From the NCBI GenBank assembly GCA_031323845.1, contig JAVIYP010000004.1:14512-78511 (forward strand): a DNA stretch of 64,000 bases. The letters run 5' to 3'. Within the stretch, counting starts at the first letter, position 1; the number at the start of each line of letters is the position of its first letter. Position numbers and translations under genes: made by a program. Shown here one piece after another: positions 35,462 to 52,261 of the stretch. The stretch comes from Bacteroidales bacterium (GTDB lineage: Bacteria; Bacteroidota; Bacteroidia; Bacteroidales; UBA7960). The notes below the pieces were generated by a model. It searched no databases and was not told where the DNA came from. It saw only the letters and a list, made by a program, of their open reading frames with translations.

Positions 35462-35494
35462 CTATTGAAGGCAACCTGATAAAAACACTGACCC

Positions 35495-38400
35495 ATGATC
35501 ATAATCAATAAGTTTTTCAGCATCAATAAGAAAAGAATAAGGCACATACAGGTTTTGTTTGCCATGCTGATCTTATTCCTGGCGACGCCGGGGCTGGCTC
35601 AAATTTACGAACCCGACGGCCTTCGTATGCCGGGCACATGGAATAACTGGACCAACGAGCAGGGTATGGGAGGTGCCTTCGACCTGCAAAAAATCCAGAC
35701 AGGAGCCCCGCGCTGGACAACCACTTTTGAATTCTCAGACAACACCGCTTTCCAGGAATTTAAGTTTGCAAGTACAAGCTTTGGCAACGTCTGGGGAAAT
35801 CAATGGGCCGGCATCCAGGATGTGCAGGTAAACACGTTGACCACGTTTATATACGGCACACCCTCCGACCCGGACAATGGCATTACACTAAGTCCGGGAA
35901 AGTGGTACACTGTGGTTTTTGAAGACAGCGGCTATGAGAACACCCGCGCCATATTTATGGAAACATCAGGCGACCCGGTCAACATAACGGACGTTATCCA
36001 GAACCCTGTTTTGGCCGGTGATATGGAGCCTGTGGCTGTCTCAGCCAGCCTCACAGGACCCCCATCACCCGAAGAAAACTTCTTCCTGGTATATACCATT
36101 GACGGATGGGAGCAATGGCATGTTGTGCCAATGACAGTGTCCGGAAATCAACTTTCGGTTGAGCTGCCCGGACAAGCATCCGGCACCGGGGTGGAATACT
36201 ACCTGTTCAGCTCGGTGATGGAGGCACCTGCTGAAGCTATTGATCTGATCAGCATCCGCACCAATGACAACAACGGCTCCCTGTATGGTTTTACCGTTGA
36301 TCAGGAGATCGATTGTGAAACGCAGTCGGGCCTGATCAGCAGTGTGCCCGCGTTTCCTATGGAAGATGAGCCCGTGACCATTTATTTTAATGCTGCTTTT
36401 GGGAATGGAGGGCTGTTTAATTTTGAAGGTGATGTTTATGCACACACCGGCGTGATCACCAATCTGTCAACCGGGCTGACCGATTGGAGGTATGTAATGA
36501 CGGCCTGGGGTGAAAACACTCCGGAGACAAAAATGCTCAGGCTCGAAGACAACCTTTACAGCCTTAGCATGGACAGCCCGAGAGAGTTTTACGGCGTGCC
36601 TGCATCCGAACAGATTGAAAGGCTGGCCTTCGTTTTTCGGAGCGATGAAGAACATCCCGACGGCTATTACCTTGAGCATAAAAACGCCGACGGCTCCGAC
36701 ATCTTTGTAGGTATTTACGAGCTTTCGCTAAATGTAAAAATTACCAGTCCTGACCGACGTGCTCCGCTTGCAAGTCCCAATACGCTTATTCCGATTTGTG
36801 TGGAAGCCCTTGAAAACGAGGTGCTTAAACTCTACCTGAATGACGAACTGCTGGTGAGCGAAAATACCGGCTCGCTTTCCTACCCCCTCGTGCTTCAGGG
36901 ACTTGAGTCGGGCTCGCACTGGATAGTAGCGGTAGCTGAATCAGGCGGCGAAGAAGCGAGGGATTCCGTAAACATTTTTCTCAGGCCACCTGTTGAGGTA
37001 GTAGCCTTGCCGGAAGGCATGCGTAACGGCATCAATTATGTGGATGACAACACGGTAACCCTCGTGCTGCATGATCCTCCGGGACAGAAACAATTCGTTT
37101 TTGCCATCGGGGAATACAGCAACTGGTTGCCAACGGAAGACAATTACATGAAGCGAACCCCTGACGGCACCCGCTACTGGGTTACGATCACCGGGCTGGA
37201 AGCCGGACAGGAATATGCCTTTCAATACCTTATTGATGGTAATCTGAAGCTGGCCGACCCTTATGCCGAAAAGATCCTTGACCCGTGGAACGATCCCTGG
37301 ATTCCGGCAACCACGTATCCCGACCTTAAACCTTATCCCTTTGATAAAACCACAGGCATCGTCAGTGTAATGCATCCCGGCCGCCAGCCCTATACATGGC
37401 AGATACCCGATTTTACTCCTCCGGCATTGAACGAAACCCAGTCCGATCTGTTGATTTACGAACTGTTGATCAGGGATTTTGTTGAAACCCGAAACATTGC
37501 CGATGTACAGGAAAAACTGGGTTATCTGAAAGATCTGGGCGTCAATGCTGTGCAGCTGATGCCCATTATTGAATTTGACGGCAATGAAAGCTGGGGGTAT
37601 GCACCTAACTTTTTCTTTGCCACAGACAAATACTACGGTACACGGCAAGCCTACAAAGAGTTCATCGATGCCGCGCATGCAATGGATATGGCCGTTATTC
37701 TCGACATCGTTCCCAACCATGCCTTCGGACAGAGCCCCATGGTGCTGATGTATTTTGACCCCGATGCGGGAGACCACGGACAACCCCTGCCCCAAAACCC
37801 ATGGTTCAACATGCAGGCACCCCACCCGTACAGTGTCGGTTATGACTTTAATCATGAAAGTCCTTACACCCGCGAGTTTTTCAAAGAAGTGTTCAGTTAC
37901 TGGCTGACCGAGTTTAAGGTGGACGGCTTCCGTATCGACCTGTCCAAAGGGCTTACTCAAACTTATTCAGGTGATGACATGGGGGCATGGAGCACTTATG
38001 ATCAAAGCCGTATTGATATTCTCACCGATTATTATCATCACATAAAAGCAGTGAGTCCCAATGCATATGTGATCCTGGAGCATTTTGCCGCTAATGATGA
38101 GGAAACCGTGCTTGCCAATACCGGTATGCTGCTGTGGAGTGCGATGCATGAACGTTATCAGCAGGTGGCCATGGGATGGGAACAACAGTCGGACCTTTCA
38201 TGGGCGTATCATGGAAGCCGCGGATGGAGTTATCCCAACCTGATCGACTATATGGAAAACCACGATGAGGAACGGCTCATGTATAACGCACTCACCTACG
38301 GAAATGCTTCAAATGCCTATAACCTTAACGATACTGCAACGGCACTGCGCCACATGGAACAAGCCCACGTGCTGTTTCTGGGCATCCCCGGTCCAAAAAT

Positions 38401-39313
38401 GCTGTGGCAGTTCCAGGAACTTGGCTATGATTACAGCATCTTCTATGGTGGCGACCGTCTCGCTCCAAAGCCTGTACGATGGGATTATGCCGACAGTGAA
38501 GAGCGGGAGCGTATACACCGCATTATCGGCGGTATGGCCAGGCTTAGAAAAAGTGACGCCTTTCGTTTCGGAAGTTTCAGCCATGACCTCGGCGGACTCG
38601 GCAAACGCATGTGGATCACCCATGCTGACATGGACGTGGTAATTGCTGCGAACATGGGCGTTGACGGGTTTGACATGCAGCCGGGCTTCACAAACACAGG
38701 TACCTGGCATGACTACTTCAGCGGTGAATCGTTTGAAGTGACCAACCCGGCAAGCCACACACTGCATTTCGGTCCCGGAGATTATCGTGTTTTTACCTCT
38801 GTTCCGCTGCCCAAGCCCTTCCATCAGCTCACCATAGTTACCATTAGCGATGCCACCGATGAGCTCATAGAAGGTGTTACTCTCAGCATGACGAATGCCG
38901 GCAGGAGAATCACCAACCACCTGGGTACGGCCAGCTATCTCGCACTGCCTCAAACAGTAACCATAACCGCAGAAAAAGAGGGGTGGATAAGCCAATCGGT
39001 TGATGTTGAAGTGGAAAACGATATGGAACTGACCATCCGGATGAAATCAGACGATGACGAAACCGGCCTTGAAGAAACAGCCGGCACAATCCCTGTCGTC
39101 ATTTATCCAAACCCCGCAAACCGCATCATAACCATTGAAAACGGAAGGGGTAAACTGCTTCAGATTTATGGCGTTGACGGACGATTATATGTGCAGAAGC
39201 ACATTGTTCATAACGAACAACAGGTCAATGTGCAAAAACTCAGAAAAGGCGTATATGTAGTGCGGATTCTTGGTGATCATATTCAAGAATCAAGACGTTT
39301 GATCATTCATTAA
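35495..39313 (+). CDS. T9SS-secreted GH13 alpha-amylase-family enzyme with CBM48-like module
   Basis: Catalytic triad DGFRIDLSK, ILEHF, ENHDEER; QLMPI..WGY; CTD IYPNP. Confidence 0.93.
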   Translation: MIIINKFFSINKKRIRHIQVLFAMLILFLATPGLAQIYEPDGLRMPGTWNNWTNEQGMGGAFDLQKIQTGAPRWTTTFEFSDNTAFQEFKFASTSFGNVWGNQWAGIQDVQVNTLTTFIYGTPSDPDNGITLSPGKWYTVVFEDSGYENTRAIFMETSGDPVNITDVIQNPVLAGDMEPVAVSASLTGPPSPEENFFLVYTIDGWEQWHVVPMTVSGNQLSVELPGQASGTGVEYYLFSSVMEAPAEAIDLISIRTNDNNGSLYGFTVDQEIDCETQSGLISSVPAFPMEDEPVTIYFNAAFGNGGLFNFEGDVYAHTGVITNLSTGLTDWRYVMTAWGENTPETKMLRLEDNLYSLSMDSPREFYGVPASEQIERLAFVFRSDEEHPDGYYLEHKNADGSDIFVGIYELSLNVKITSPDRRAPLASPNTLIPICVEALENEVLKLYLNDELLVSENTGSLSYPLVLQGLESGSHWIVAVAESGGEEARDSVNIFLRPPVEVVALPEGMRNGINYVDDNTVTLVLHDPPGQKQFVFAIGEYSNWLPTEDNYMKRTPDGTRYWVTITGLEAGQEYAFQYLIDGNLKLADPYAEKILDPWNDPWIPATTYPDLKPYPFDKTTGIVSVMHPGRQPYTWQIPDFTPPALNETQSDLLIYELLIRDFVETRNIADVQEKLGYLKDLGVNAVQLMPIIEFDGNESWGYAPNFFFATDKYYGTRQAYKEFIDAAHAMDMAVILDIVPNHAFGQSPMVLMYFDPDAGDHGQPLPQNPWFNMQAPHPYSVGYDFNHESPYTREFFKEVFSYWLTEFKVDGFRIDLSKGLTQTYSGDDMGAWSTYDQSRIDILTDYYHHIKAVSPNAYVILEHFAANDEETVLANTGMLLWSAMHERYQQVAMGWEQQSDLSWAYHGSRGWSYPNLIDYMENHDEERLMYNALTYGNASNAYNLNDTATALRHMEQAHVLFLGIPGPKMLWQFQELGYDYSIFYGGDRLAPKPVRWDYADSEERERIHRIIGGMARLRKSDAFRFGSFSHDLGGLGKRMWITHADMDVVIAANMGVDGFDMQPGFTNTGTWHDYFSGESFEVTNPASHTLHFGPGDYRVFTSVPLPKPFHQLTIVTISDATDELIEGVTLSMTNAGRRITNHLGTASYLALPQTVTITAEKEGWISQSVDVEVENDMELTIRMKSDDDETGLEETAGTIPVVIYPNPANRIITIENGRGKLLQIYGVDGRLYVQKHIVHNEQQVNVQKLRKGVYVVRILGDHIQESRRLIIH

Positions 39314-39470: not shown

Positions 39471-42400
39471 GTGAAGTTGTCTGCCTTAACAGAAAGGATA
39501 ATTATTCCAAACAAACCCGGCGCATATGTTGGGTTTGTTTTGGTATGGTTGTTCTCATGCCTGGTCTGTTCCGTTCAGTTACATGCGGACTGCCAGTCCG
39601 ATTGGGCAACTTCCAAAATCGCGCATCCGGAGGTGATCAACATCGGAGTGCTTGCCAACCGGGGCGACAGCCTATGTTATGTGGAGTGGGGGCCTACAGC
39701 CGACTATCTTTCGTATCATCTGGCACCCTATAAGTTTAAGATTGTGCCGTTGGGATTTGATGAATTTCTTGATGAAGTAAAGGCTCCACACGGCCGCTTG
39801 TCGTATATGTCGGCGAACCCTTCCTATTACGCATACCTTGAGCATTACGGTTTAGCTCGCCGCCTGGCCACCTTGCTGATTCCCGGCGAGCCCATGCCCC
39901 AATCCGTTTTTGGCGGGGTGCTTTTTACAAAAGCCAACAGGCACGACATCCGGGAGCTGGCCGACTTGCGGGGCAAAACGCTTGCTGCAGTTGACCCCAG
40001 TTCTATGGGTGGCTGGCATGCAGCCCTGAGGGAGATCAAGGAAAGTGGACGCCTGCGTTTGCATGAGCTGGAGTCGGTTCATTTTGTCGGCACACACGAT
40101 AATGTGGTATTACAGGTCGTTTCGGGAGCTTTTGATGCAGGTACCGTCAGAAGCAGCCAGATCGAACGCATGATCAGTGAAGGGCTGATAAACCGCGACG
40201 ACATTAACATCATAAACAGTAAGGCAGAACAACAACCTGATTATCCTTACCTGCTGTCTACCAGGCTATACCCTGAGTGGCCCTTTGCCGCACTCAAAGG
40301 CGCCGATGAAGAACTCAGCAGGCGTGTTTCGGTTCTCCTTATGCAGATGGACGCTGATGATCCCGCAGCAATTGCGCTGAGAGGCGCAGGATGGACATTC
40401 CCGGAGCAATATGCCGAGGTGCATAACCTGCTTAATGTTCTCAGCCTGCCTCCTTACGAAGCCACACGAATCAGGGTAAGGGATGTCATCATGGCTTACT
40501 GGCCCTGGCTGACAACCCTGCTGATCTTGTCTCTTGGCATGGCCGGCTTCATCATCTATATCCTGATACTGCAAAGAAAAACAACAACCATTTCCGGAAA
40601 ACTGGTAAAAAGCGAACAAAAATTCAGAGAGTTGTTTGAACACGCTCCTGTGGCCATGGTAGTGCACGACCGCAATACTGCCGAAGTTCTTGATGCGAAC
40701 CGGCATGCCATCGAATCATATGGTTTCTCCACCCTCGAAGAGTTTCTCAATACAGACAAATGGATTGACCCGCCCTATTCTTACGATGATGTATTATATT
40801 GGTTTTCCCGGGTTCGTGATGAAGGTCCGCAACAATTTGAATGGAAATCACGCACAGTACATGGTGAGTATTTCTGGAAAGACATTAAACTGCAGGAACT
40901 TGAGCTGGGCAACAGGGTTGTGATGCTATCCATCTCTTACAACATCACTGAACGAAAGCAGGCAGAGGACAAACTAAGAGAAAGTGAACAGTTGTTCCGG
41001 AACCTCACCAACAACCTTTCAGTTGGAGTGGTAATGATCAGCAAGGACATGGAAGTGATGACCATCAACCCCAAAATGCGTGAATGGTTTCCCCGTGACG
41101 ATTACAACAAATGCCCCAGGTGTTATATTGCCTTTAATACCCCCGAACGCAGTACACCTTGCGAGAATTGTCCGGTAGCCAAAACCCTTGTTGATGGAAA
41201 AACCCACACCTATGAAAGGGAAGCGGAAACACATTTGGGCAAAAAGGTGCTGTTGATAACCTCTACTGCAATAACCGACATCAATGGTGAGATCATTGCA
41301 GCCATTGAAATGGCGGATGACATCACAGAAAGAAAACAAACGGAGAAGATCCTTATAGAGGCTAAAGCACAAGCAGAAGAGGCCAATAAAGCCAAATCGG
41401 AGTTTCTTGCCAATATGAGTCATGAAATCCGCACACCGCTCAATGGCGTCATTGGTTTCACCGACCTGTTACAAAAAACCAGTCTGAACAAAACACAGAG
41501 GCTCTATGCCGAGAATGCAAACACATCTGCTCTTTCGCTGCTGGCTATCATCAATGATATTCTGGACCTTTCAAAAATAGAGGCTGACAAGCTGGAACTG
41601 GAAATCATTGAAGCAGACATGATTCGTCTGATGCAGGAAGCCATAGATATCATCAAGTTTCATGCCGCAGAAAAACAACTTGAGCTCTTGCTGAACATTG
41701 ACCCGGCTATGCCTCGTTTTGCATTGGTTGACCCTGTGCGCCTGAAACAAATATTAGTGAACCTGTTAAGCAATGCCGTAAAATTCACTGAAAAAGGAGA
41801 AGTGGAGCTGCGGCTGGGCTTCGAAGCCATTGACGAAAATCAGGGCAGGTTCAGTGTCAGCATCCGCGATACAGGCATAGGCATCAGTGAGGAGCACCAG
41901 AAAAGGGTGTTCGACGTCTTTATGCAGGCCGACACCTCCACTACCAGGAGGTATGGCGGCACCGGACTTGGACTGCCCATCTCCGGTTTGCTCGCCCGTA
42001 AAATGGGCAGCCGCATCGAACTGAAAAGCGCACCGGGAGAAGGATCAACCTTTTATTTTACACTGGAAACCAGCTACAGACGCGGAAAAATGCTGGATGT
42101 AAGAGATATAAAAGAAGTAAAACGTGTGCTTCTTGTTGACGACAACGACCAGAACCGACTTATACTACAACACATGTTTGACTTCTGGGGTATACATCTT
42201 ACAGGGTGTTCCGGCTGTAAAGAGGCCATTGAGGTGTTAAAGGAGTCTCCGCCATTCGATGTTATCATTATGGATTACCACATGCCGGAAACAGACGGAT
42301 TGGAAACCATAAGGATGATCAGGCAGGAGCCGGGTCTGGTTCCGGAAGAGCAAAACATCATACTGCTTCACAGCTCCTCAGATGACCCAAACATCTATAA

Positions 42401-43322
42401 ACACTCCAAAACCCTTAAGATACGTTATACGCTGACCAAGCCGATTAAGTCGCAAGAGCTGCTACAATACCTGAAAAGCCTTCAAAACGAATATCTTCCG
42501 GTAAAAGAAAAAAAAGAGAAGAAAGACAGCATCAAGAATATGTTGATTGATAAGGAGGCACAACCGCTCATAATGCTGGTAGAAGATGTTGAGATGAACA
42601 TTTTGCTGATTAAAACACTCATCAGTCAACGTATTCCCGGGGCAACCTTCCTGGAGGCGTCAGATGGCAAGGAAGCCCTGGAGTTATTAAAAACCAACAC
42701 CCCCGATCTGATTTTCATGGACGTACAGATGCCGGTCATGGATGGATGGGAAACAACGCGAATTCTTCGGAAAAATGAAGAAGGCACAAAGCAGCACATT
42801 CCTGTAATAGCGCTTACAGCCAGGGTGTTGAAAGAAGAAATCGAGAAATGTGTCGAGGCTGGCATGGATGGCTTTCTGGGTAAACCAATAAATCATCAGG
42901 CCCTGTATGAGACCTTATTAAAGCATCTTGGCGGTGATTATAAAAACGGCAGCCGTAAGCAACCGGCTGCGGTAGGGCACGTGGAGAAGGATTGGGATAA
43001 AACGGCATTGATGGACCATCTCGATGGTGACACCCAATTGATGAAGGACTTCATAACGGACGTATTGAAACAGTTTCCTCAATACCTTAACGGGCTTAAG
43101 AGCGCCGGTATGAACCACAACGAAAACCAGATAAGCAGATATGCACACAAGCTAAGGGGTGTTGCGGCCAATTTGCGTTTCAGCCGTCTGGCAGATATTG
43201 CCGAAGAGATTGAAAAAACGACCGCCACCACTGCTGAAGGCGACTTGTCGGGCATTGAAAAAGCACTCAAAGCCTGGGAAGACCTGCACCAAATACTTAA
43301 AGAGGAGCTGAAAAATCTTTAA
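39471..43322 (+). CDS. Hybrid sensor kinase: PhnD/phosphonate-binding-like periplasmic domain - TM - 2 PAS - HisKA - HATPase - 2 REC - Hpt
   Basis: AAVDPSSMGGW, THDNVV..DAG, LYPEWPFAA; SHEIRTPLNG; two REC Asp motifs; AHKLRG Hpt; GTG start. Confidence 0.93.
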   Translation: MKLSALTERIIIPNKPGAYVGFVLVWLFSCLVCSVQLHADCQSDWATSKIAHPEVINIGVLANRGDSLCYVEWGPTADYLSYHLAPYKFKIVPLGFDEFLDEVKAPHGRLSYMSANPSYYAYLEHYGLARRLATLLIPGEPMPQSVFGGVLFTKANRHDIRELADLRGKTLAAVDPSSMGGWHAALREIKESGRLRLHELESVHFVGTHDNVVLQVVSGAFDAGTVRSSQIERMISEGLINRDDINIINSKAEQQPDYPYLLSTRLYPEWPFAALKGADEELSRRVSVLLMQMDADDPAAIALRGAGWTFPEQYAEVHNLLNVLSLPPYEATRIRVRDVIMAYWPWLTTLLILSLGMAGFIIYILILQRKTTTISGKLVKSEQKFRELFEHAPVAMVVHDRNTAEVLDANRHAIESYGFSTLEEFLNTDKWIDPPYSYDDVLYWFSRVRDEGPQQFEWKSRTVHGEYFWKDIKLQELELGNRVVMLSISYNITERKQAEDKLRESEQLFRNLTNNLSVGVVMISKDMEVMTINPKMREWFPRDDYNKCPRCYIAFNTPERSTPCENCPVAKTLVDGKTHTYEREAETHLGKKVLLITSTAITDINGEIIAAIEMADDITERKQTEKILIEAKAQAEEANKAKSEFLANMSHEIRTPLNGVIGFTDLLQKTSLNKTQRLYAENANTSALSLLAIINDILDLSKIEADKLELEIIEADMIRLMQEAIDIIKFHAAEKQLELLLNIDPAMPRFALVDPVRLKQILVNLLSNAVKFTEKGEVELRLGFEAIDENQGRFSVSIRDTGIGISEEHQKRVFDVFMQADTSTTRRYGGTGLGLPISGLLARKMGSRIELKSAPGEGSTFYFTLETSYRRGKMLDVRDIKEVKRVLLVDDNDQNRLILQHMFDFWGIHLTGCSGCKEAIEVLKESPPFDVIIMDYHMPETDGLETIRMIRQEPGLVPEEQNIILLHSSSDDPNIYKHSKTLKIRYTLTKPIKSQELLQYLKSLQNEYLPVKEKKEKKDSIKNMLIDKEAQPLIMLVEDVEMNILLIKTLISQRIPGATFLEASDGKEALELLKTNTPDLIFMDVQMPVMDGWETTRILRKNEEGTKQHIPVIALTARVLKEEIEKCVEAGMDGFLGKPINHQALYETLLKHLGGDYKNGSRKQPAAVGHVEKDWDKTALMDHLDGDTQLMKDFITDVLKQFPQYLNGLKSAGMNHNENQISRYAHKLRGVAANLRFSRLADIAEEIEKTTATTAEGDLSGIEKALKAWEDLHQILKEELKNL

Positions 43323-43748: not shown

Positions 43749-46685
43749 TTACATCCCCAGGAGTTTAACCGACAGCATCAATTGGCCCTGTGGTTTCTGA
43801 CTCTCTTCAAAAAGCCAGGCGTAACCAACCGACCAGGTGGTTTTCATATACGAGAGCATCACTATCTCTATATCCGTCTGAAAACCCGCGTTGAAAACAT
43901 GTCGCGACACATCGCTGCGATCGGGGTCGGTGAACAGGTGTGTGCCAAATAATGAGGTGTAAATATAGGTAGGATATATCCAGGTGGCACCGACGTTACG
44001 TGTTCGTAAAGGACGAAGGTTCAGTTCGCTCATGGTTCTTATGTAGTTGTGCGCAGGCAATGCATCGATTTCAGCACCCGGGAAAGCAAGACTGCCCCTG
44101 TATTGGCGTGGTTCGCGCCAATCGACATAGTTGTTCCGGAAACCACCCAGGTAAAAGTATGACAGGGCCGATTCCCTGCTGCCAAAGGACTGACCGGCGC
44201 TGTTACGGATCCAGAAACTGGTGTTCCTGATGCCGGGCACCAGGAAGCCCACGTCCTGGTTCGAAACGATGGACGGGTAAAACGAGTCGGCCGCATAATA
44301 GGCAACGCCTGAGACGCGCCAGTTATAGCCCGTTTCGTGGTCGACGCCACCGAGGGTACGGCGCAGTTTCGACATGTTGAAGCCGGCCGTAGCCGCCTGG
44401 AACTGTCTCATGGGCGACTCGATGTTCTGATGCAGTGGCAACACTTCAAGGTCGCCGTAATGATACACTCCAAAGCTGTAGCCGTAACGGAAGGGCTCTC
44501 TCAGCGTATAATTTCTGTCGTAGGAAATACCAACGCTATAACCGGCACGGCTTCTCTTGGTCGGGCCGAAGAGGTCGTAAAAGTCCGTGCGGTTCCAGGT
44601 GGCGCTCAGCTTCCAGTTCCAGTAGCGCCAGTCGAGATGGGCGTGCACCTTCTGTTTGTCTTCAAAGGAGCTCCATGGCGAAGTGGCCAGGAAGAGGTCG
44701 ATCTGGCTCAGCGACAGGGGGTCACGCCAGAGCATACGGTAACCGACGGCAGCCGTGTTTTTATAGCCTGTCAAGTCGGGCCAGGCGTTGGCCAGGAACA
44801 TCTCCCGGACCGGGTGATAGGCAACCTCCCGCACTCCGGTGGTGTCCACATGCGGTGGCGGCGGCAGCGACCATTCAGTCACCTGCGGGTTGCGCTCCAG
44901 CACATCCATCCCAAGAAAATAAATGGCATTGGCCTCATAAAGGACCTCCAGCGGAATGCGTCCCGGTTTCATTCCATCACGATAGAAGCGCAGCACCAGC
45001 AACGAATCTTCGCTGTACTGATAGGGCATGAAAAAGCCCGTTTCCGTATTGGACAGCAGGTCAAACGATCCGTCTTCAATGCCCACGCGCCACACGTTGG
45101 AAACACCGGTGTAGTATGACGTGCCAATGAGATATTCATTGCAGGGGGCAAACTTGAATTGCGTCAGCGTATTGTCGTCGAGCTTAAGCAGGCTGCGGTA
45201 GCGCGTATTGCCCATCTCCAGTTCCCGTATTTCGAAAAGCACAAGTTCCTGCTCGCCTCCGACGCCTGAAAGCGTGGCGGCGAGGTATCTTCCGTCGGAT
45301 GAGATGTCGAGGTCGAAGATGGCCTGGCCAAAGGGTGTTTCCCAAAGCGGCTCGATGCTTTCGTAGGGCTCGGGAAATTTCACCAGCATAGAATGGCCGT
45401 TGTCGAGGCGCACGCCCCAGATGCTGCGGTCGGCGCGGTTAAACACCAGGTCGCCGGTACGCGTGAAAGGCAGGATGGTTTCCTTGCGGCCGCTTTCAAC
45501 GTCAATGGCCACCAGGCTGCGGTACTTGTAGTTGTGCTCGGTGATGTAAACGATGTTGCTGTCGGGGTCGTAGGCCAAATGTGTGGAGTAATACAGGGCG
45601 GGTGTGTCGAGGGTTGCCAGCTTGCGGATGTCGCCGGTGCGGGTGTCAATTTCGGCTATTTGTGAGATGATGCCGGGGTAGTTGATGGCCATGTACATCT
45701 TTTCGGTGTCGTGGTTGTAGCGAAAGGTGGAGGCGTTGCCCAGAGGGTGCGCGGTGATTGGCTCAAAGGCGGTAAGCGGGTATTCCTTCACCCTGTTGAT
45801 GTTTTCTTGTTGAAACTGACGTTCGAAAGCGATCCACTCGTCCCAGGCCTGCCCTACCGGCTTGTCATAGACCTGCCTGAACTGCCTGGCATAAAAGGCC
45901 TTGCTGTCTTCCGAGCGCAAGAAGAAGTCGTGCAGCTTGTCAACGCCGTATTCCCTGGCCAGGTATGTGGTGAAGCGCGAGCCGTAGAGGTAGGCGTTGG
46001 CGCCTACCTGGAAGTCGAGTGCCGTGCCTTCGGTTTCGAGGCCCACTACTGAGTGGATGGGGGCATTTTCGTGCACGAGGCTGCGGAAGTACATTTCGTC
46101 GTAGTATCCCATGGTGCGACCGAGGCCTCCTGACATCCAGGTTTCCATGAAAATGGCGATGCCTTCCTGGTACCAGCGGGGGGCATACCATCGCGGCACG
46201 GTGGTGTAGCTCCACAAGGCGGAGAGCGGGTAGGCCTCGTCGCGGCGCACCTTGCCGAAGAAGGCCCGCCGCCAGCGTTCATCGCGACGGTTGGGCTTGT
46301 CGGTCATCACCACGTGCGTCAGCTCGTGGTTGAACAGCCACTGGAAACGCTCACTTGCCGGCAGGATGCTGAAAGCAAAGTTATACGGTCCGATGCCGAT
46401 GAACACCTGGTTGAGCGGCATGGTAATGGCACCGCCCGTGCCATAATCCTGGAAGTCGTTGAGCATCACGTAGATCTTGCCGGGGTCGTAGTCCCAAAGC
46501 TCCTGGTGGAAGTCCATCGCATTAAAGAAGGTGCGCAGCACGTGCGGCGTCATATAGGTGTAGCGGCCGCCAAAATATACCAGCTGTACGCGTTCGGTGT
46601 CGATCTGGGTGATCAGTTGTGCCCTGGATTCATTCACTGACAGCAAGCTCAAGAGCAGGGCTGCGATGAATAGTCTGGTTTTCAT
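43749..46685 (-). CDS. Outer-membrane protein: gluzincin metallopeptidase + TolB-like beta-propeller + C-terminal beta-barrel (978 aa)
   Basis: Signal peptide; HELTH plus downstream WYQEGIA third ligand; propeller blades (FDLDISSDGRYLAA, FAPCNEYL); amphipathic C-terminal strands. Confidence 0.85.
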   Translation of the reverse strand: MKTRLFIAALLLSLLSVNESRAQLITQIDTERVQLVYFGGRYTYMTPHVLRTFFNAMDFHQELWDYDPGKIYVMLNDFQDYGTGGAITMPLNQVFIGIGPYNFAFSILPASERFQWLFNHELTHVVMTDKPNRRDERWRRAFFGKVRRDEAYPLSALWSYTTVPRWYAPRWYQEGIAIFMETWMSGGLGRTMGYYDEMYFRSLVHENAPIHSVVGLETEGTALDFQVGANAYLYGSRFTTYLAREYGVDKLHDFFLRSEDSKAFYARQFRQVYDKPVGQAWDEWIAFERQFQQENINRVKEYPLTAFEPITAHPLGNASTFRYNHDTEKMYMAINYPGIISQIAEIDTRTGDIRKLATLDTPALYYSTHLAYDPDSNIVYITEHNYKYRSLVAIDVESGRKETILPFTRTGDLVFNRADRSIWGVRLDNGHSMLVKFPEPYESIEPLWETPFGQAIFDLDISSDGRYLAATLSGVGGEQELVLFEIRELEMGNTRYRSLLKLDDNTLTQFKFAPCNEYLIGTSYYTGVSNVWRVGIEDGSFDLLSNTETGFFMPYQYSEDSLLVLRFYRDGMKPGRIPLEVLYEANAIYFLGMDVLERNPQVTEWSLPPPPHVDTTGVREVAYHPVREMFLANAWPDLTGYKNTAAVGYRMLWRDPLSLSQIDLFLATSPWSSFEDKQKVHAHLDWRYWNWKLSATWNRTDFYDLFGPTKRSRAGYSVGISYDRNYTLREPFRYGYSFGVYHYGDLEVLPLHQNIESPMRQFQAATAGFNMSKLRRTLGGVDHETGYNWRVSGVAYYAADSFYPSIVSNQDVGFLVPGIRNTSFWIRNSAGQSFGSRESALSYFYLGGFRNNYVDWREPRQYRGSLAFPGAEIDALPAHNYIRTMSELNLRPLRTRNVGATWIYPTYIYTSLFGTHLFTDPDRSDVSRHVFNAGFQTDIEIVMLSYMKTTWSVGYAWLFEESQKPQGQLMLSVKLLGM

Positions 46686-46734
46686 CTGTTTACAGTTTCA
46701 TTATGTTGTTTTTAAATGCATTGTGTTTATTTTG

Positions 46735-46845
46735 TTTCACAGAGTTTCACGGAGTTTGACACAGAGTTTCACAGAGTTTTGTCTCTGTGAGACTCTCCCG
46801 CATGGGCGGGACAGGTGTGAATGACTCAGTGTTACTCTGTGTAAC
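46735..46845. repeat. CACAGAG tandem/inverted repeat cluster in the leader of the OM peptidase gene
   Basis: tttcacagag x2, tttcacggag, tttgacacagag, then inverted ctctgtga and ctctgtgt; GC hairpin tcccgc-atgg-gcggga at 46796-46811. Confidence 0.8.
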
Positions 46846-46925
46846 TTTATTTGTTCTCGCAGATTATGTGATAATCAGCCCTCTGTGTTTCAAAATATTT
46901 AGCATGGGCGTTTCTGGTTGTAAGA

Positions 46926-46950
46926 TACGAAAAAAGTCATTCCCTGTTGC
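46926..46950 (-). promoter_or_regulatory. ECF-type promoter P4: GCAAC-N16-CGTA, overlapping a terminator hairpin
   Basis: Revcomp gcaac agggaatgactttttt cgta; same spacing as P1-P3. Confidence 0.65.
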
Positions 46951-46966
46951 CGGGGAATGACTTTTT
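46931..46966 (-). terminator. Intrinsic terminator after repeat protein B
   Basis: 14-bp perfect stem aaaaagtcattccc/gggaatgacttttt with U tract. Confidence 0.85.
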
Positions 46967-47023
46967 ATGCAGTAAATGTTCACAGAATTTGAGTGTCATT
47001 GCAGGTTTTGTTACGAGCATGCT

Positions 47024-48331
47024 TTAATCGAGAGTGAAGCCTGTGCGAAGCTGTTCATTATCAAATAAAACTGAGCCGCGCAGGAAGTCGCCGTCGCGTA
47101 TCATTTCGGAGCCGCGCAGCACTTCGTTCATCTGCAGCAAAGGAGCATCCAAAGACCGCAATTGTTCGCTGTCCAAAATGTTGAACCTGAGTTGTTCGTT
47201 GTCAAGGAATGCATCCCTGAGTTGTGAAGCATCGGTTATGCCCATGTCGCGCAATTGTTCTGCATCCCAAATAGGCAACAGGAAATTCAGCTGTTCTGTA
47301 TCAAACGCTGCAAGTTGTTCGAAGTCCAATGCACTCGCATCGTCGAGCCTGACACCATCAAGGAAACTCATCACATCATTGAGTTGTTCTGAGTCAAGTA
47401 CGGCTACGCGACGGAGATTTTCAGCGTCAAGGATGCCAAAATGACGTAACTGTTCGGCATCAAACCTCGTAAGGTCGCGCAGGTGTTCCGCATCCTGTAC
47501 CCTGAAGTTAACACGGAGTGCTTCAATGTCCATGATAACAAAATCCAGGAGTGCTTCATTCAGGAAGGCAATATCTCTGAGGTTTCCTGCGTCATTAAGT
47601 ATAATCATCCGGAGGGTTTCCGCATCCAGCTGGGCAAACTCACCCTCTTCATCCATTACGTCTTTGGCGAGCAGGTGTTCGAGCACCGGGCGGTTGTCGT
47701 TCACGATGTTGTGCATCAGCATGTTTGCGAAGAGCTGGTCGTGGGCAAGTGTTAGCTGTGGAAATTCTGCTTTTGGATGTGTTTTGAAGAAGCTTTCGAC
47801 GTCTGTCATGAAGTCGAACACCACGCCGTTGCGAACCTGTGTTTGTGCGATGGCGCTACCGGCGCTGTTGAGCACGGTGCGTATGGCAACGCGGTCCTTT
47901 TCGGAGAGGTCGGAGAGTACCCCGATGGCTTCGAGGATGCGCAGGCGGGCGTTGTCAAGGAACAAGGCGTACTCTTCCATACGGTTAAGGGTGCGGGCGC
48001 TGTTGGTGCGAAAGTCGTTGTGCTCTCTTCCTGCAGCAATTGCGAAGCGCAGGTCGTCGCCCATCTTGATGTTGGCGGCATACTCATAGGCGAGGTAGTT
48101 GCGGTATGCTTCGCGCATGTTTTGGTCGGCCAGCAGCTCGTTGCGCAGCTCAATGTCGGCTTCGGTAACGCGGACGTTGCGGTACTGGTCAACGCGGCCA
48201 ATGGTGCCGGCAGCCTCCCATATACTTAGTCCGGTAATGCGCGGATTTATCATGGCCAGCCCTATTGTCATGCCCACTACTAGACCTAATGCAAGGCCAA
48301 CAAGGAGAAATATGATCTTAGTCTTTTTCAT
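47024..48331 (-). CDS. Membrane-anchored protein B with ~16-18 hDxEQL C-terminal repeats
   Basis: Start MKKTKII (ATG 48331; the ORF-track 48472 start lies upstream of promoter P3); N-terminal TM; clearly paralogous to 48624-49658. Confidence 0.9.
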   Translation of the reverse strand: MKKTKIIFLLVGLALGLVVGMTIGLAMINPRITGLSIWEAAGTIGRVDQYRNVRVTEADIELRNELLADQNMREAYRNYLAYEYAANIKMGDDLRFAIAAGREHNDFRTNSARTLNRMEEYALFLDNARLRILEAIGVLSDLSEKDRVAIRTVLNSAGSAIAQTQVRNGVVFDFMTDVESFFKTHPKAEFPQLTLAHDQLFANMLMHNIVNDNRPVLEHLLAKDVMDEEGEFAQLDAETLRMIILNDAGNLRDIAFLNEALLDFVIMDIEALRVNFRVQDAEHLRDLTRFDAEQLRHFGILDAENLRRVAVLDSEQLNDVMSFLDGVRLDDASALDFEQLAAFDTEQLNFLLPIWDAEQLRDMGITDASQLRDAFLDNEQLRFNILDSEQLRSLDAPLLQMNEVLRGSEMIRDGDFLRGSVLFDNEQLRTGFTLD

Positions 48332-48388
48332 GGCTGTTCTTTTTTGAAAATAATTGATTGATTTCCAGCATTGGTTTGCTGATAAAAT

Positions 48389-48413
48389 TACTAAAAAAGT
48401 TCGTAAAAGTTGG
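48389..48413 (-). promoter_or_regulatory. ECF-type promoter P3: CCAAC-N16-AGTA
   Basis: Revcomp ccaac ttttacgaactttttt agta, 58 nt above the ATG. Confidence 0.75.
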
Positions 48414-48529
48414 TGTTTTTTGACAAAAAATTTCATTATCAATATGATAGCGGCAAATCTCTTAGAATTCAAAAACGGGTTCTTCGCTTCTATTCAGATA
48501 TAAAAGCCTCTATACCATCCAAAAAAACA

Positions 48530-48568
48530 ATAAACAGTCATTCCCCGCTCCCGGGAATGACTGTTTAT
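48530..48568 (-). terminator. Intrinsic terminator after repeat protein A
   Basis: 16-bp perfect stem ataaacagtcattccc/gggaatgactgtttat; duplicate of 46931-46966 including the adjacent 3' UTR. Confidence 0.85.
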
Positions 48569-48623
48569 GCAGTCAATCTTTACAGAATTTGATTGTCATT
48601 GCAGGTTTTTTGCAAGTGATGTG

Positions 48624-49658
48624 TTAGTAAGGATGTATTCCGCGAAGTTGTTCAGTATCAAAGAGAATTTGGCCACGCAGGAATTCGCTGTTGCGCATCA
48701 TTTCCGAGCCACGCAATACCTCATTCATGTTTAGCACACCCTCGAACGATTGCAACATTTCACTGTCAAGGATACCAAAATGCTGAAGCTGCTCTGCGTC
48801 AAAAAATTGCAAAAACTGGAGCATCCCTGCCTGGTCAAGAAAACCAATACTTAACAATGCTGGATTATCAAGCAGGGCCTGTAATGATGCCTCGCCTAGA
48901 CCGATAATGCTCTGAAGTTCTCCCATATCCAACAACAGCTTGTCCCTGAGTGTTTCCATGTCTAACTGCGCCAGTTCACCGTCTTCATCCATCAATTCTT
49001 TGGCAAGCAGATGTTCGAGCACCGGGCGGTTGTCGTTGACCATGGTACTCATGAGCACGTTGGCAAAAAGCTGATCGTGGGCTTTGGCCAGTTCGGGGTG
49101 TTGCGCGGGAGGGGTTGTGTCAAAGAACCGCTCCACACCCAGCATGAAGTCGAACACCACGCCATTGCGAAACTGGGTTTGCGCCAGGGCATTCCCGGCA
49201 TTGTTCAGCACGGTGCGGATGGCCACCCTGTCTTTGTCTGACAGGTCGGTTATCACAGTCAGGGCTTCCAGTATGCGAAGGCGCGCATTATCAAGAAACT
49301 CAGCGTAATCTTCCAGTCCATTAAGAGTGCGGCGGTTTTTCAGGCGAAAATCAGAGGCATCATAGCCCGCCAGAATCGCGAACCTGATGTCTTCGCCCAT
49401 TTTAATGTTGCTTGCATACTCGTAGGCCAGGTAGTTCCTGTATGCCTCGCGCATATGTTCATCTGACAGCAGTTCGTTGCGTAGTTCGATGTCGGATGCC
49501 GTTACACGTACATTGCGGTATTGGTCAATGCGGCCAATGGTGCCTGCAGCTTCCCTCAGGCTCATGCCCGGATTGGTTAAAGTAAGGCCCACCATAAGTC
49601 CTATGGCAAAACCGATAACAATACTGAATACAACGGCAAGAATTTTTGGAGTTTTCAT
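48624..49658 (-). CDS. Membrane-anchored protein A with ~8-9 hDxEQL C-terminal repeats
   Basis: N-terminal TM, EAAGTIGRIDQYRNVRVT, helical core near-identical to protein B. Confidence 0.9.
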   Translation of the reverse strand: MKTPKILAVVFSIVIGFAIGLMVGLTLTNPGMSLREAAGTIGRIDQYRNVRVTASDIELRNELLSDEHMREAYRNYLAYEYASNIKMGEDIRFAILAGYDASDFRLKNRRTLNGLEDYAEFLDNARLRILEALTVITDLSDKDRVAIRTVLNNAGNALAQTQFRNGVVFDFMLGVERFFDTTPPAQHPELAKAHDQLFANVLMSTMVNDNRPVLEHLLAKELMDEDGELAQLDMETLRDKLLLDMGELQSIIGLGEASLQALLDNPALLSIGFLDQAGMLQFLQFFDAEQLQHFGILDSEMLQSFEGVLNMNEVLRGSEMMRNSEFLRGQILFDTEQLRGIHPY

Positions 49659-49692
49659 AACGGTATGTTTTGATTGGTTGTTCTGGTGATAA

Positions 49693-49717
49693 TACTTACA
49701 AAGATCGCAAAAGTTGG
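49693..49717 (-). promoter_or_regulatory. ECF-type promoter P2: CCAAC-N16-AGTA
   Basis: Revcomp ccaac ttttgcgatctttgta agta, directly after the anti-sigma stop codon. Confidence 0.75.
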
Positions 49718-49718
49718 T

Positions 49719-50474
49719 TTATTGCACAAAAAATTGTCTGTTATAGCTCAATCGTCCTTCCTGTAGCACCTCGAGCACAAATGGGCCGGTGAATCCGGTG
49801 TTTTTGTTAAGTACGATCTGATAATGGGTTTTACCCTGGACACCAAAGCTTATCCGGTCTGCCCGGACTGTTTCGTGCATTTCACGGCCGCTGAGGTACC
49901 GCGCACGTAACAGACGGTATGCTTCCGTGTCGAAAGAAAGGGTCACTTCAATGGGGTCATCGGCGGCTGCCGTTAGCACGAGGATCACCATGTTGTCAAC
50001 CACCATGGGATTTACCTGGACCTGCCAGTCGTCTTGTGCGAACGCCATCTTCTGACCCGACCGGGCGGCCATGGTGCCGGCCATTTCACGTGAGTCGGTA
50101 AGCAGACGACCCGGCTGTACCATCAGCGTAACCACCGAGCCCAGCAATATACCAATGGCCAGCATGGCAGCATAACGCAGGAGCGCCCTGCCCTGAAAAC
50201 GGATCATCAGCGGCAGGCTTTTGCTGTCTGAGCCAAACACGCGTTCACGGTCCTGCCTGATGCGCTCCATTACTGACGGGCTCATATCGGGCACCGCAGG
50301 AGCACGGACAAAATTACGCAGGGATGCATCAAGCTCTTCCATGTCGCGTAAATAGCGCCTGACATCCTCCGATTCAGACAGGATACGGTGCAACGCATCC
50401 AGTTCCTCCCGGCTGATCGTGCCATCGAGCTTCCGGTTCACAAGGACCTCCAGTTCAGATGATATCTTTGACAT
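49719..50474 (-). CDS. Single-pass anti-sigma factor
   Basis: Follows the ECF sigma; N-terminal ASD-like helices (LDGTISREE..LHRIL), one TM, periplasmic beta domain; no HxxxCxxC zinc motif. Confidence 0.8.
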   Translation of the reverse strand: MSKISSELEVLVNRKLDGTISREELDALHRILSESEDVRRYLRDMEELDASLRNFVRAPAVPDMSPSVMERIRQDRERVFGSDSKSLPLMIRFQGRALLRYAAMLAIGILLGSVVTLMVQPGRLLTDSREMAGTMAARSGQKMAFAQDDWQVQVNPMVVDNMVILVLTAAADDPIEVTLSFDTEAYRLLRARYLSGREMHETVRADRISFGVQGKTHYQIVLNKNTGFTGPFVLEVLQEGRLSYNRQFFVQ

Positions 50475-50541
50475 AGTGTTACTGTGTTTAAACGTTTACT
50501 GCGCAACAGCCGGCTTCTTGCATCCTAGCCCTGTTTATCCT

Positions 50542-51102
50542 TCACGCCCTGCTGCTTTCAAAAAAACCCTGCCGTTCAAGTATGCCCTTTAAGAGTTTGC
50601 GTCCGTCATACAGCCTTGACTTCACTTTCTTTTCAGACAGGTCAAGCACTTCTGCAATTTCCGCATAGGAAAGTTCTTTAAAGTAATGCAGCACAATCAC
50701 TGCCCTGTAATTCTCCCCGAGTTCGCCCATTGCCCTTTGAAGCATCACGTCCCGCTCCTTCTCCATCACTGGCTTGTCAACACTGTCCGGGTTGCGACCG
50801 GCATCTTCAGGTAATCGTTCCAAACGCACAAAGCGCTGTGACTTTTTTATATGACTGATGGCCGTATTGATGGCGATGCGGTAGATCCAGCTGAAAAACT
50901 TACTCCGGTAGTTAAACGTTTCCAACTTTTCATAAGCCTTCACAAACACCTCCTGTGCCAGCTCCTCAGCCTCTTCGTGCTGCTGCAGCATCTGGTACAA
51001 CACATGGTACACTGCAGCCTGGTAATTACGCACCAGCAGCTCGTACTCCTGTATGTTTCCCGCCAGAATGCGCCGGATGACGCTATTTTCGTCGTTTTTC
51101 AT
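50542..51102 (-). CDS. ECF RNA polymerase sigma factor (SigW-like)
   Basis: Region 2 AEELAQEVFVKAY..FFSWIYRIAIN; region 4 LSYAEIAEVL..VKSRL; ATG 51102 preferred to TTG 51108. Confidence 0.95.
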   Translation of the reverse strand: MKNDENSVIRRILAGNIQEYELLVRNYQAAVYHVLYQMLQQHEEAEELAQEVFVKAYEKLETFNYRSKFFSWIYRIAINTAISHIKKSQRFVRLERLPEDAGRNPDSVDKPVMEKERDVMLQRAMGELGENYRAVIVLHYFKELSYAEIAEVLDLSEKKVKSRLYDGRKLLKGILERQGFFESSRA

Positions 51103-51108
51103 TAACAA

Positions 51109-51133
51109 TACGCCGTTGTGGTTAAAAAGTTGG
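51109..51133 (-). promoter_or_regulatory. ECF-type autoregulatory promoter P1: CCAAC-N16-CGTA, probably leaderless
   Basis: Revcomp ccaac tttttaaccacaacgg cgta ttgtta ATG. Confidence 0.8.
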
Positions 51134-51265
51134 TTTTTTGTATTCCTTTTTTCTCCGGGAAACCCAACGTTTGCATTCTTCCCGCCCTGCCGTTGTTTTT
51201 TATTATACCTGTGTTCAGGATGCGTCCTCGTTGCTATCTTCCATAATGAGAGGCTTAGCAGAGAC

Positions 51266-52261
51266 TTAGCTGCTTAACTGGTTTAACTCCCAGAGTTCAC
51301 GATGGTTCATGCGCACCAGTGGCAGCAAGGCCATCTCGCCGGCTTTGCCTATCTGTTTGCGCAGCGCTTTTAGCTCCAGCAGTTTGTTTTTGATATCCGG
51401 CTCAACCAGCACCGGAAACCCGTTTTCCCTGAGCATCAGGTTTCGTTTTGCCTTGATGGACAACTCCAGGTACAGACTGAAAAAACAATACATGTCTACC
51501 AGCGTTTCCGGCTGGAAGTGCTCTTTCAGCGACGCGAGGTAGCGACCGGCCTTGGTGTCTCTGAATTGCCCCTGCCGGATCATGCGCAGCATGTCCACCT
51601 CGTTGCTGAACTCCACCTCAAGCCAGTTCTGGAGGTGGCGCGTGGTGTACATAAACACCACATAAAAAATAAGGGGTAGCAGAATGATGATCAGCAAGGT
51701 CATCAACAAGGGATCAAAAATAAAATGATTGAATGCTGAATGCAGCACCATGGCAACTAACAATCCTAATGCGCTGCCGGTTAAAAGGTTATTGTTGCGT
51801 TGCATCCCCTCAATGAGGATCATCGCAGCTATTGCCACAACACCACCATGCATGATGGCTGTGCCAAACCCCCTGACGATGGCCAGCAACACATTGAAAT
51901 CTGCCCCCAGATGAATATAATACCACAGGTTTTCAGCCAATGCAAAGCCTGTGCCTATGGCAAATCCGTAAATGGCCGCATCGATCATGAAACCGACCCG
52001 CCTGCGTGCCACCAACAGGAGAAGCAGCGAAGCCTTCAGCAACTCTTCAGAAACGGGGGCAATGTATCTTGTGAGCACATCAAAGCCTATGTTGTAAAAT
52101 CCAATTAAAAAGGAATTCACCAAATAAGCCAGTAAAGCTGAAACAACACCCCACGCCAAACACACAGCTAACAACCTTCTTGATACCAGTTTAAAGCTGT
52201 CGAGCAAAAAGAGACATCCCAAAAACAACAATACCGGGAAAAAGCCAAAGGCAATGATCAT
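51266..52261 (-). CDS. prsW: PrsW-family glutamic intramembrane protease
   Basis: Motifs PVSEELLK, GTGFALAEN, AIMHG, LHSAFN; multi-TM. Confidence 0.9.
   Translation of the reverse strand: MIIAFGFFPVLLFLGCLFLLDSFKLVSRRLLAVCLAWGVVSALLAYLVNSFLIGFYNIGFDVLTRYIAPVSEELLKASLLLLLVARRRVGFMIDAAIYGFAIGTGFALAENLWYYIHLGADFNVLLAIVRGFGTAIMHGGVVAIAAMILIEGMQRNNNLLTGSALGLLVAMVLHSAFNHFIFDPLLMTLLIIILLPLIFYVVFMYTTRHLQNWLEVEFSNEVDMLRMIRQGQFRDTKAGRYLASLKEHFQPETLVDMYCFFSLYLELSIKAKRNLMLRENGFPVLVEPDIKNKLLELKALRKQIGKAGEMALLPLVRMNHRELWELNQLSS

Follow-up and report, generated by a model that had tools for sequence, protein, structure and literature searches.

Locus and question

In Bacillus subtilis, the anti-sigma factor RsiW is cleaved at site 1, in its extracytoplasmic part, by the intramembrane protease PrsW (as cited in PMC3482391). 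What would such a protease do in a diderm, where its gene stands beside those of an extracytoplasmic function (ECF) sigma factor, an anti-sigma factor, two repeat proteins and a large outer-membrane (OM) protein? This question is raised by positions 43749-52261 of a 64,000-nucleotide stretch of a Bacteroidales genome (assembly GCA_031323845.1, contig JAVIYP010000004.1, positions 14,512 to 78,511), hereafter the window. A sequence-only reading of this DNA had proposed a regulated-proteolysis system of six co-oriented genes, and open reading frame (ORF) calling of the window confirms six ORFs, all on the minus strand, which also carries the promoters and terminators described below. We find that the locus brings together known parts (an ECF sigma factor, an anti-sigma factor, PrsW and a catalogued OM architecture) with a new protein family, in a conserved combination that has not been described, and we tentatively read this combination as a proteolytic circuit spanning the envelope.

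In order along the minus strand, the six genes encode a PrsW-family intramembrane protease of 331 amino acids (51266-52261; Pfam PF13367, E = 1.4e-19); an ECF sigma factor of 188 amino acids (50542-51108; Sigma70_r2, 2.6e-18; Sigma70_r4_2, 3.9e-17); a single-pass anti-sigma factor of 251 amino acids (49719-50474), assigned through a weak NCBIfam 'antisigma' match (1.9e-6) that lies below the cut-off; repeat protein A, of 344 amino acids (48624-49658), delineated by alignment, a predicted model and repeat statistics; its tandem paralog, repeat protein B, of 435 amino acids (47024-48331); and an OM protein of 978 amino acids (43749-46685), in which a predicted model and Foldseek identify an HExxH peptidase domain, a propeller and a barrel. 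The mechanical ORF of B (47024-48472) is too long, and alignment with A places the true start at Met48, at position 48331. Neither A, B nor the OM protein has a Pfam or NCBIfam family match.

Conservation of the module across the Bacteroidota

A survey of 251 genomes from the order finds A in 16 and the OM protein in precisely those 16. A PrsW ortholog is present in all eight carriers tested and in none of four non-carriers, two of which share genera with carriers. A wider scan, with one genome per species, yielded at least 561 genomes with a relative of the OM protein, and the best 80 of these were examined for gene neighbourhoods. Other species provided 54 loci with enough flanking sequence, and of these 52 have A as a neighbour, 49 PrsW and 33 the sigma and anti-sigma genes, the orthologous anti-sigma gene following the sigma gene in these 33. 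The commonest orders are PrsW-sigma-anti-A-OM (18 loci), PrsW-A-OM (11) and sigma-anti-A-OM-PrsW, with one to four copies of A per locus, and other classes of the phylum keep a sigma-anti-(A)-OM-PrsW cluster. The sequence-only reading had staked itself on the recurrence elsewhere of A/B, the OM protein and the sigma pair; A, the OM protein and PrsW do recur together, and the sigma pair accompanies them in the 33 loci. Because some loci and genomes lack the sigma pair, as detailed below, the core of the module consists of PrsW, A and the OM protein, with the ECF pair as a frequent addition.

The present genome carries one copy of the module. All of the best 80 relatives come from metagenome-assembled genomes (MAGs), mostly of Bacteroidales, Prolixibacteraceae, Lentimicrobiaceae and Paludibacter, the nearest being from soda-lake sediment. 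Physical linkage is not absolute, whereas co-presence is: in three carriers PrsW lies on a different contig from A and the OM gene (C41 versus C46 in G604, C12 versus C31 in G546, C1 versus C2 in G277), and in G604 an anti-sigma-like gene stands beside the off-contig PrsW. Two loci with proteobacterial labels (L046, from a MAG labelled Thioalkalivibrio sp., and L105, from one labelled Alphaproteobacteria) have OM genes 77% and 45% identical to the one described here, in the same gene order, and their contigs are probably mis-binned.

A juxtamembrane motif shared by the anti-sigma factor and the repeat proteins

The anti-sigma factor, A and B have in common an AGT[IM] motif next to the membrane, as the sequence-only reading had noticed, and the motif is conserved in their relatives. 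Alignment of A and B shows a near-invariant segment, AGTIGR/K-x-D-x-YRN, after the anchor, and the pattern G-[TAS]-x-G-[KRQG]-x-x-[KRNQS]-[YF] is found just past the anchor in 76 of 90 A-family proteins. The anti-sigma factor consists of an N-terminal cytoplasmic part, a transmembrane (TM) helix at about residues 99-118, the motif in the form REMAGTMA and a periplasmic domain of about 115 amino acids. Among orthologous anti-sigma factors, 39 of 43 present G[TSA][MFLIV] between 4 and 36 amino acids past the TM helix, compared to 3.7 expected from shuffled sequences.

At four loci from other Bacteroidota classes (L129, L131, L134 and L135), a single protein unites the N-terminus of an anti-sigma factor with a TM helix, a complete A-type motif and tandem repeats of 8-9 amino acids, such as SAEVREALK repeated about 25 times or ASPDFSRLM repeated about 45 times. 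A separate A gene is absent from these loci and the helical bundle of A is absent from the fused forms, so that what is universal in A-type proteins is an anchor, a juxtamembrane G-T-[IVF]-G-[KRQG]-x-x-[KRNQS]-[YF] segment and, whatever its sequence, a long tail of repeats. These fused proteins show that an A-type ectodomain can serve as the outer (sensor) end of an anti-sigma factor. Judged from their sequences, they further suggest that A and the anti-sigma factor of this locus arose by the splitting of a fused anti-sigma::A protein, and they speak for sensing by the repeat tail no less than for its export or processing.

Promoters restricted to the locus

The pattern CAAC-N16-MGTA has seven matches in the window, compared to 2.75 expected, and four of them, on the minus strand, stand immediately in front of the genes for sigma, A, B and the OM protein. 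A pattern search places the ECF-type promoter of the sigma operon (CAACTTTTTAACCACAACGGCGTA) at 51109-51132, that of gene A (CAACTTTTGCGATCTTTGTAAGTA) at 49693-49716 and that of gene B (CAACTTTTACGAACTTTTTTAGTA) at 48389-48412. An extended form, CAACTTTT-N12-MGTA, has three sites in the 2.89-Mb genome, all of them in the locus and upstream of sigma, A and B, and the regulon thus looks self-contained. The fourth of the promoters originally proposed, a putative OM promoter with the sequence CAAC-N16-CGTA at 46926-46949, lacks the TTTT extension and is the least secure of the four. It overlaps the terminator of B (46931-46966; 46926-46966 for the two together), which was identified as an inverted repeat with 14-nt arms that are 100% complementary.

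In orthologous loci, AAC[TC]T-N13-16-NGTA is found upstream of sigma in 28 of 47, compared to 2.6% of random 180-nt windows, and the same AACTT...GTA motif lies upstream of A in 16%. Sites equivalent to the one specific to the OM gene are rare (1 of 44, about 2%), and the strict pattern transfers poorly to the A and OM genes of other loci. Judging by these motif counts, the sigma promoter is conserved, and the separate, putative OM promoter is a local feature of this genome. In the sigma promoter, the last base of the -10 element comes 1 nt ahead of the TTG of the ORF, the likely start being an ATG at 51102, about 7 nt downstream, and the sigma mRNA may be leaderless.

An intrinsic terminator with a 16-bp stem followed by a T run lies after A, at 48530-48568. 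The 3' untranslated regions and terminator hairpins after A and B (48500-48640 and 46900-47040) are about 80-85% identical over about 80 nt, and from this duplication it follows that the event that gave rise to B from A carried the terminator along. The copy after B alone has CAAC in its loop and CGTA behind its T run. A leader of about 235 nt separates the putative OM promoter from the start codon of the OM gene, and at 46728-46897 it holds four tandem units of about 10 nt (CACAGAGTTT, plus strand) and several inverted copies with arms of 13-22 nt that are 82-93% complementary. These repeats could fold into an RNA structure or serve as an array of operators. As the spacer between A and the OM gene is short in most orthologous loci, the leader seems local to this genome.

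Domain organization of the outer-membrane protein

The OM protein is composed of a signal peptide, a putative zincin domain with an HExxH...EGIA signature, a TolB-like six-bladed propeller and a C-terminal barrel of 16 strands. In its AlphaFold model, with a predicted local distance difference test score (pLDDT) of 79 and a predicted template modelling score (pTM) of 0.76, the helical HExxH domain spans residues 1-300, the propeller 310-580 and the barrel 620-978. The propeller matches TolB (2w8b_B) with a Foldseek E = 9e-9 and a probability of 1.0, and it was the only part reported by the whole-model search. Residues H120, E121, H124, E174, G175, A177 and E181 are each conserved in 79-80 of the 80 orthologs compared. 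The family comprises more than 3,500 matches, with 70% mean column identity over 39 members. As the N-terminal domains of an even-stranded barrel lie in the periplasm, the peptidase and propeller domains of the model are predicted to face that compartment.

Sub-threshold profile matches hint at known families. PF13485 (Peptidase_MA_2) is found below threshold in 13 of 39 family members, at best with E = 1.2e-5, and PF19143 (Omp85_2) in 14 of 39, with E = 0.015 for the present protein. The OM protein has no PF01103 match and likewise does not reach the PF07676 threshold. Its FYLGG...YRG segment lines up with the FYxGG...VRGY region of Omp85-type proteins, and hhalign comparison of the barrel with local Omp85 barrels gives E = 0.2, that with BamA/TamL-type barrels of this and related genomes not being significant either. 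Elsewhere in the genome, two more proteins of about 1,030 and 987 amino acids (contig C70, ~44-48 kb, and contig C100, ~7.7-10.7 kb) have the same domain order. Both are canonical 'WD40-like Omp85' members with HExxH, PD40 repeats, PF01103 and VRGY, and neither has PrsW or A partners. One of them is colinear with the OM protein at a marginal pairwise similarity (E = 0.001). More distant homologs of the OM protein (E about 1e-190) also lack PrsW and A partners.

The protease and the sigma factor

The PrsW-family protein covers positions 3-195 of the 196 in PF13367, and the family model matches this protein only in the whole genome. Its catalytic motifs (EExxK, E110, H138 and H174xxxN178) are intact, and residues E72, E73, K76, E110, H138, H174 and N178 are each conserved in 60-64 of the 65 orthologs compared, the remainder being gaps. 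The sequence is predicted to form about seven TM helices followed by a C-terminal domain of about 125 amino acids, which positive-inside reasoning would place in the cytoplasm, with the catalytic residues probably near the periplasmic ends of the helices. The best NCBIfam model for the sigma factor is SigW (NF007223), with 123.9 bits against a cut-off of 209, and the protein is therefore not an equivalog. A site-2 protease of the M50 family is encoded elsewhere in the genome (PF02163, 1.7e-55; C76:50100-51350).

Repeat proteins A and B

Repeat protein A is composed of an N-terminal TM anchor, an invariant AGTIGR-x-D-x-YRN segment, a helical bundle of about 170 amino acids and a tail of DxEQL-type units of about 11 amino acids. 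Its predicted model (pLDDT 74.5) is confident in the bundle (85-97) and of low confidence in the repeat tail, and Foldseek, queried with it, reported generic helical bundles only, none with E below 0.07. B, which a genome search identifies as a tandem paralog with 60% identity to A, has a longer repeat tail. Units of the form [DN]x[EQ]x[LM] number 12 in B, with a modal spacing of 11 residues, and 5 in A, compared to 1.1 +/- 1.0 and 0.7 +/- 0.8 in shuffled sequences. The sequence-only reading had put the repeats at about 17 and 9, respectively; the counts far exceed chance, and an approximate tally by eye that admits degenerate units raises both towards those figures. Tandem Repeats Finder detected no recent repeat expansion in A or B at the DNA level.

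The A family comprises 539 clusters at 50% identity, with proteins of 300-550 amino acids. Profile searches with the N-terminal domain of A found no family member fused to a known domain, and sequence searches of the PDB with the OM protein, A and the OM profile found nothing. In the tails, the units are alike within a protein and unlike between lineages (DxEQL, ANADLRAML, SAEVREALK, ASPDFSRLM, QKGEPITM and QQNLDAAGNVVQS, among others). At three loci with the order sigma-anti-A-OM-PrsW (L097:4752-, L101:5844- and L103:2096-), A presents a lipoprotein-type signal (…FAISC, …FVSC and …LFSC) instead of a TM anchor, and the GTIGK motif follows about 10 residues beyond the Cys.

A candidate proteolytic circuit and its alternatives

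We assign a probability of roughly 45% to a regulated-proteolysis circuit of the sigmaW/RsiW/PrsW type that would span the whole envelope. The repeat tail of A or B would reach the OM protein, whose propeller would bind it and whose peptidase would cut it, and PrsW would cut the anchored A and B at or near the juxtamembrane motif. Carrying the same motif, the anti-sigma factor would be cut whenever PrsW is active; cleavage by the M50 site-2 protease would free the ECF sigma factor, and this factor would switch on its own operon, together with A, B and, probably, the gene for the OM protein. Such a circuit would report the activity of PrsW and the OM protein and would replace or adjust the parts of the module, A and B being sigma-induced co-substrates that provide feedback or replenishment. 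We infer each cleavage event, the order of the proteases, the orientation of the OM domains and the physiological signal.

Several observations weigh against this circuit. About 40% of the well-flanked loci lack sigma and anti-sigma genes, and a test of ten carrier genomes found five in which an anti-sigma factor of this family is missing altogether, a sixth (G522) showing weak partial N-terminal matches only. Since A has no cytoplasmic domain, pure signalling would leave the sigma-less version without an output. The view of the locus as a self-contained circuit with the sigma pair as its integral driver consequently holds in part: promoter sites confined to the locus support it and the pair is linked in 33 of 54 loci, but the pair is not obligatory. 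No downstream stress genes are visible in the regulon defined by the stringent motif, and this absence, together with the sigma-less versions, means that A, B and the OM protein must themselves act as effectors. Furthermore, PrsW is not an equivalog of the B. subtilis protein (NF033739, 20.2 bits against a cut-off of 225), and A is a lipoprotein, not TM-anchored, in some lineages. The known cut site in RsiW (Ala168/Ser169) lies far from the membrane and has no GT motif. The conserved motif might also serve to dock the OM protein and not as a cut site.

The module could also be a production line, as the sequence-only reading had suggested for repeat-derived peptides or a polymer subunit. In this account, which we regard as doubtful, PrsW would release A and B from the membrane in response to a signal, the propeller-gated OM peptidase would cut their tails to peptides of about 8-13 amino acids or pass the tail through the barrel, and the sigma pair, through its substrate-mimic motif, would match supply to consumption, an arrangement comparable to the coupling between sigma28 and the export of FlgM. 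With a regulon made up of the module's own genes, A and B resemble end products; the presence of up to four A copies at a locus and the fast evolution of the tails agree with this, and the sigma-less PrsW-A-OM version still makes sense. The narrow length band of the A family is nevertheless unlike that of typical multi-copy peptide precursors, and the fused anti-sigma::tail proteins are more natural as sensors. The 16 strands and the weak Omp85-superfamily signals of the barrel would suit a superfamily that includes protein translocators (PMC4104836), but membership of the barrel is not established, given the missing PF01103 match and the hhalign value, and A has no two-partner secretion (TPS) domain and the OM protein no POTRA domain. 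Sensor genes with periplasmic binding domains recur beside the module, one such domain being fused, in the window, to a flanking histidine kinase. In a more elaborate version, which we consider improbable, A and B would be multi-copy precursors whose tails, released once a signal has reached PrsW, are threaded via the propeller to the peptidase and cut to acidic peptides of repeat length that leave by the barrel. The module would then be a factory for ribosomal, repeat-encoded peptide signals in environmental Bacteroidota. Its receptors would be the hybrid kinase at 39471-43322 and other sensors of the binding-protein type, and the anti-sigma factor would be a substrate mimic that meters consumption.

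The roughly constant ectodomain length (about 250-420 amino acids), kept despite unrelated repeats, points in another direction, as does a motif region far more conserved than a cut site needs. A and B might be tethers that span the periplasm and are not PrsW substrates, their repeats binding the propeller as a multivalent pseudo-substrate and holding the OM peptidase and barrel inactive or in place; this we think unlikely. It is similarly unlikely, in our estimate, that the motif docks on PrsW or the OM protein in such a safety catch and that loss of contact, through damage to the envelope or competition by other substrates, exposes it, fires the sigma factor and frees the peptidase. The titration models for CpxP/DegP and RseB/RseA offer analogies, the propeller is similar to that of TolB, a protein known to bind short linear motifs (the TolB-box), and the helical bundle is dispensable in other classes. 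This account leaves unexplained why sigma-less loci keep a catalytically intact PrsW. That the genes are chance neighbours, the OM protein being a general envelope quality-control protease and A and B unrelated membrane proteins, would fit the canonical paralogs and distant OM homologs without PrsW or A partners. We judge it highly implausible in the face of the perfect phyletic match of A and the OM protein over 251 genomes, the adjacency in 52 of 54 loci across families and classes despite rearranged order, and the shared promoters.

Relation to known systems

The regulated-proteolysis circuit that we favour resembles the sigmaW-RsiW-PrsW-RasP system in a protease of the PrsW family whose catalytic motifs are intact, an ECF sigma factor with SigW as its best NCBIfam model, an adjoining single-pass anti-sigma factor, an autoregulated AAC...CGTA-type promoter and a site-2 protease of the M50 family elsewhere in the genome. 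It differs in that neither PrsW nor the sigma factor is an equivalog, PrsW having an extra, putatively cytoplasmic domain of about 125 amino acids; in that the host is a diderm, whose module always includes the OM peptidase-propeller-barrel protein and repeat proteins sharing the anti-sigma motif; and in that many carriers do without the sigma pair, while the regulon, as far as it is visible, is the module itself.

Heinz and Lithgow (2014; PMC4104836) catalogued 'WD40-like Omp85' proteins with TolB-like and aminopeptidase-like parts N-terminal to the barrel, and did not describe partners for them. The OM protein has a putative zincin-like part, the TolB-like propeller and a modelled C-terminal 16-strand barrel in the same order, but falls below the PF01103 and PF07676 thresholds, and the coupling to PrsW and repeat proteins is seen in this branch only. 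The statement of the sequence-only reading that no named system has this architecture therefore needs qualification with respect to the OM protein, whereas for the coupling it stands: a full-text literature search found no description of PrsW together with such an OM protein or with the repeat proteins.

In two-partner secretion (FhaB/FhaC), an OM barrel is encoded beside a long repetitive cargo that is processed by proteases. The module likewise pairs a dedicated OM barrel with a repetitive partner; in contrast, A lacks a cleavable signal peptide and is anchored in the inner membrane, and the Pfam searches find neither a TPS nor a POTRA domain in A, B or the OM protein. PrsW has also been proposed as a releasing peptidase for polymorphic toxins, fused to the toxin and with the immunity gene next to it (Zhang et al. 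2012; PMC3482391). The putative release of a membrane-associated protein by PrsW is common to both, but we rejected this candidate because PrsW is unfused here, no toxin or immunity domain was detected and the neighbours are different. A curli- or Fap-like amyloid, a reading prompted by the Q/N/G-rich tails of distant relatives, was also rejected, as the tails of other lineages are acidic, rich in Ala or contain Pro, and linked genes of the CsgG/FapF type are missing.

Genomic context

The module is flanked by hybrid histidine kinases on the opposite strand, the left one of which (39471-43322) begins with a Phosphonate-bd/NMT1-type periplasmic binding domain (Pfam). Beyond it, 33410-39313 encodes two large proteins that end in sorting domains for type IX secretion (Por_Secre_tail), one of them with an alpha-amylase catalytic domain, and a ZnuABC-type transporter is encoded at 30008-32500 of the window. 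A search for anti-phage defence genes with PADLOC found no match, save for one weak helix-turn-helix hit on the sigma factor, and an Rfam search of 43-53 kb returned nothing credible.

Two gene sets frequently flank the module in other genomes: one consists of an NMT1-like binding protein, one or more SpoIIE-type phosphatases and STAS (partner-switching), and the other of ABC_sub_bind, STAS, a permease and an ATPase. Loci with such recurrent sets include L047-L049, L054, L056, L066 and L104. A STAS gene is present at 30 of the 80 loci, and at L003 it overlaps the start of PrsW. STAS/SpoIIE genes are commoner at sigma-less loci (21 of 36) than at sigma-bearing ones (13 of 44). These sets may feed signals to the predicted cytoplasmic domain of PrsW. 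The window itself contains neither the partner-switching nor the ABC-like set, but its left-flank kinase has the binding domain of Phosphonate-bd/NMT1 type.

Implications

If the proposed circuit is correct, the module would be a diderm version of the Gram-positive PrsW-controlled ECF sigma device that reaches the outer membrane via an Omp85-like peptidase, with rapidly evolving repeat tails as its moving part, and it would offer a testable case of a protease recognition motif common to a regulator and the products of its regulon. It would also provide a role for the unannotated A family and a first function and first partners for the 'WD40-like Omp85' architecture, which is uncharacterised. 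At least 561 species genomes encode a relative of the OM protein, nearly all of them from uncultured Bacteroidota of sediments, digesters and soda lakes.

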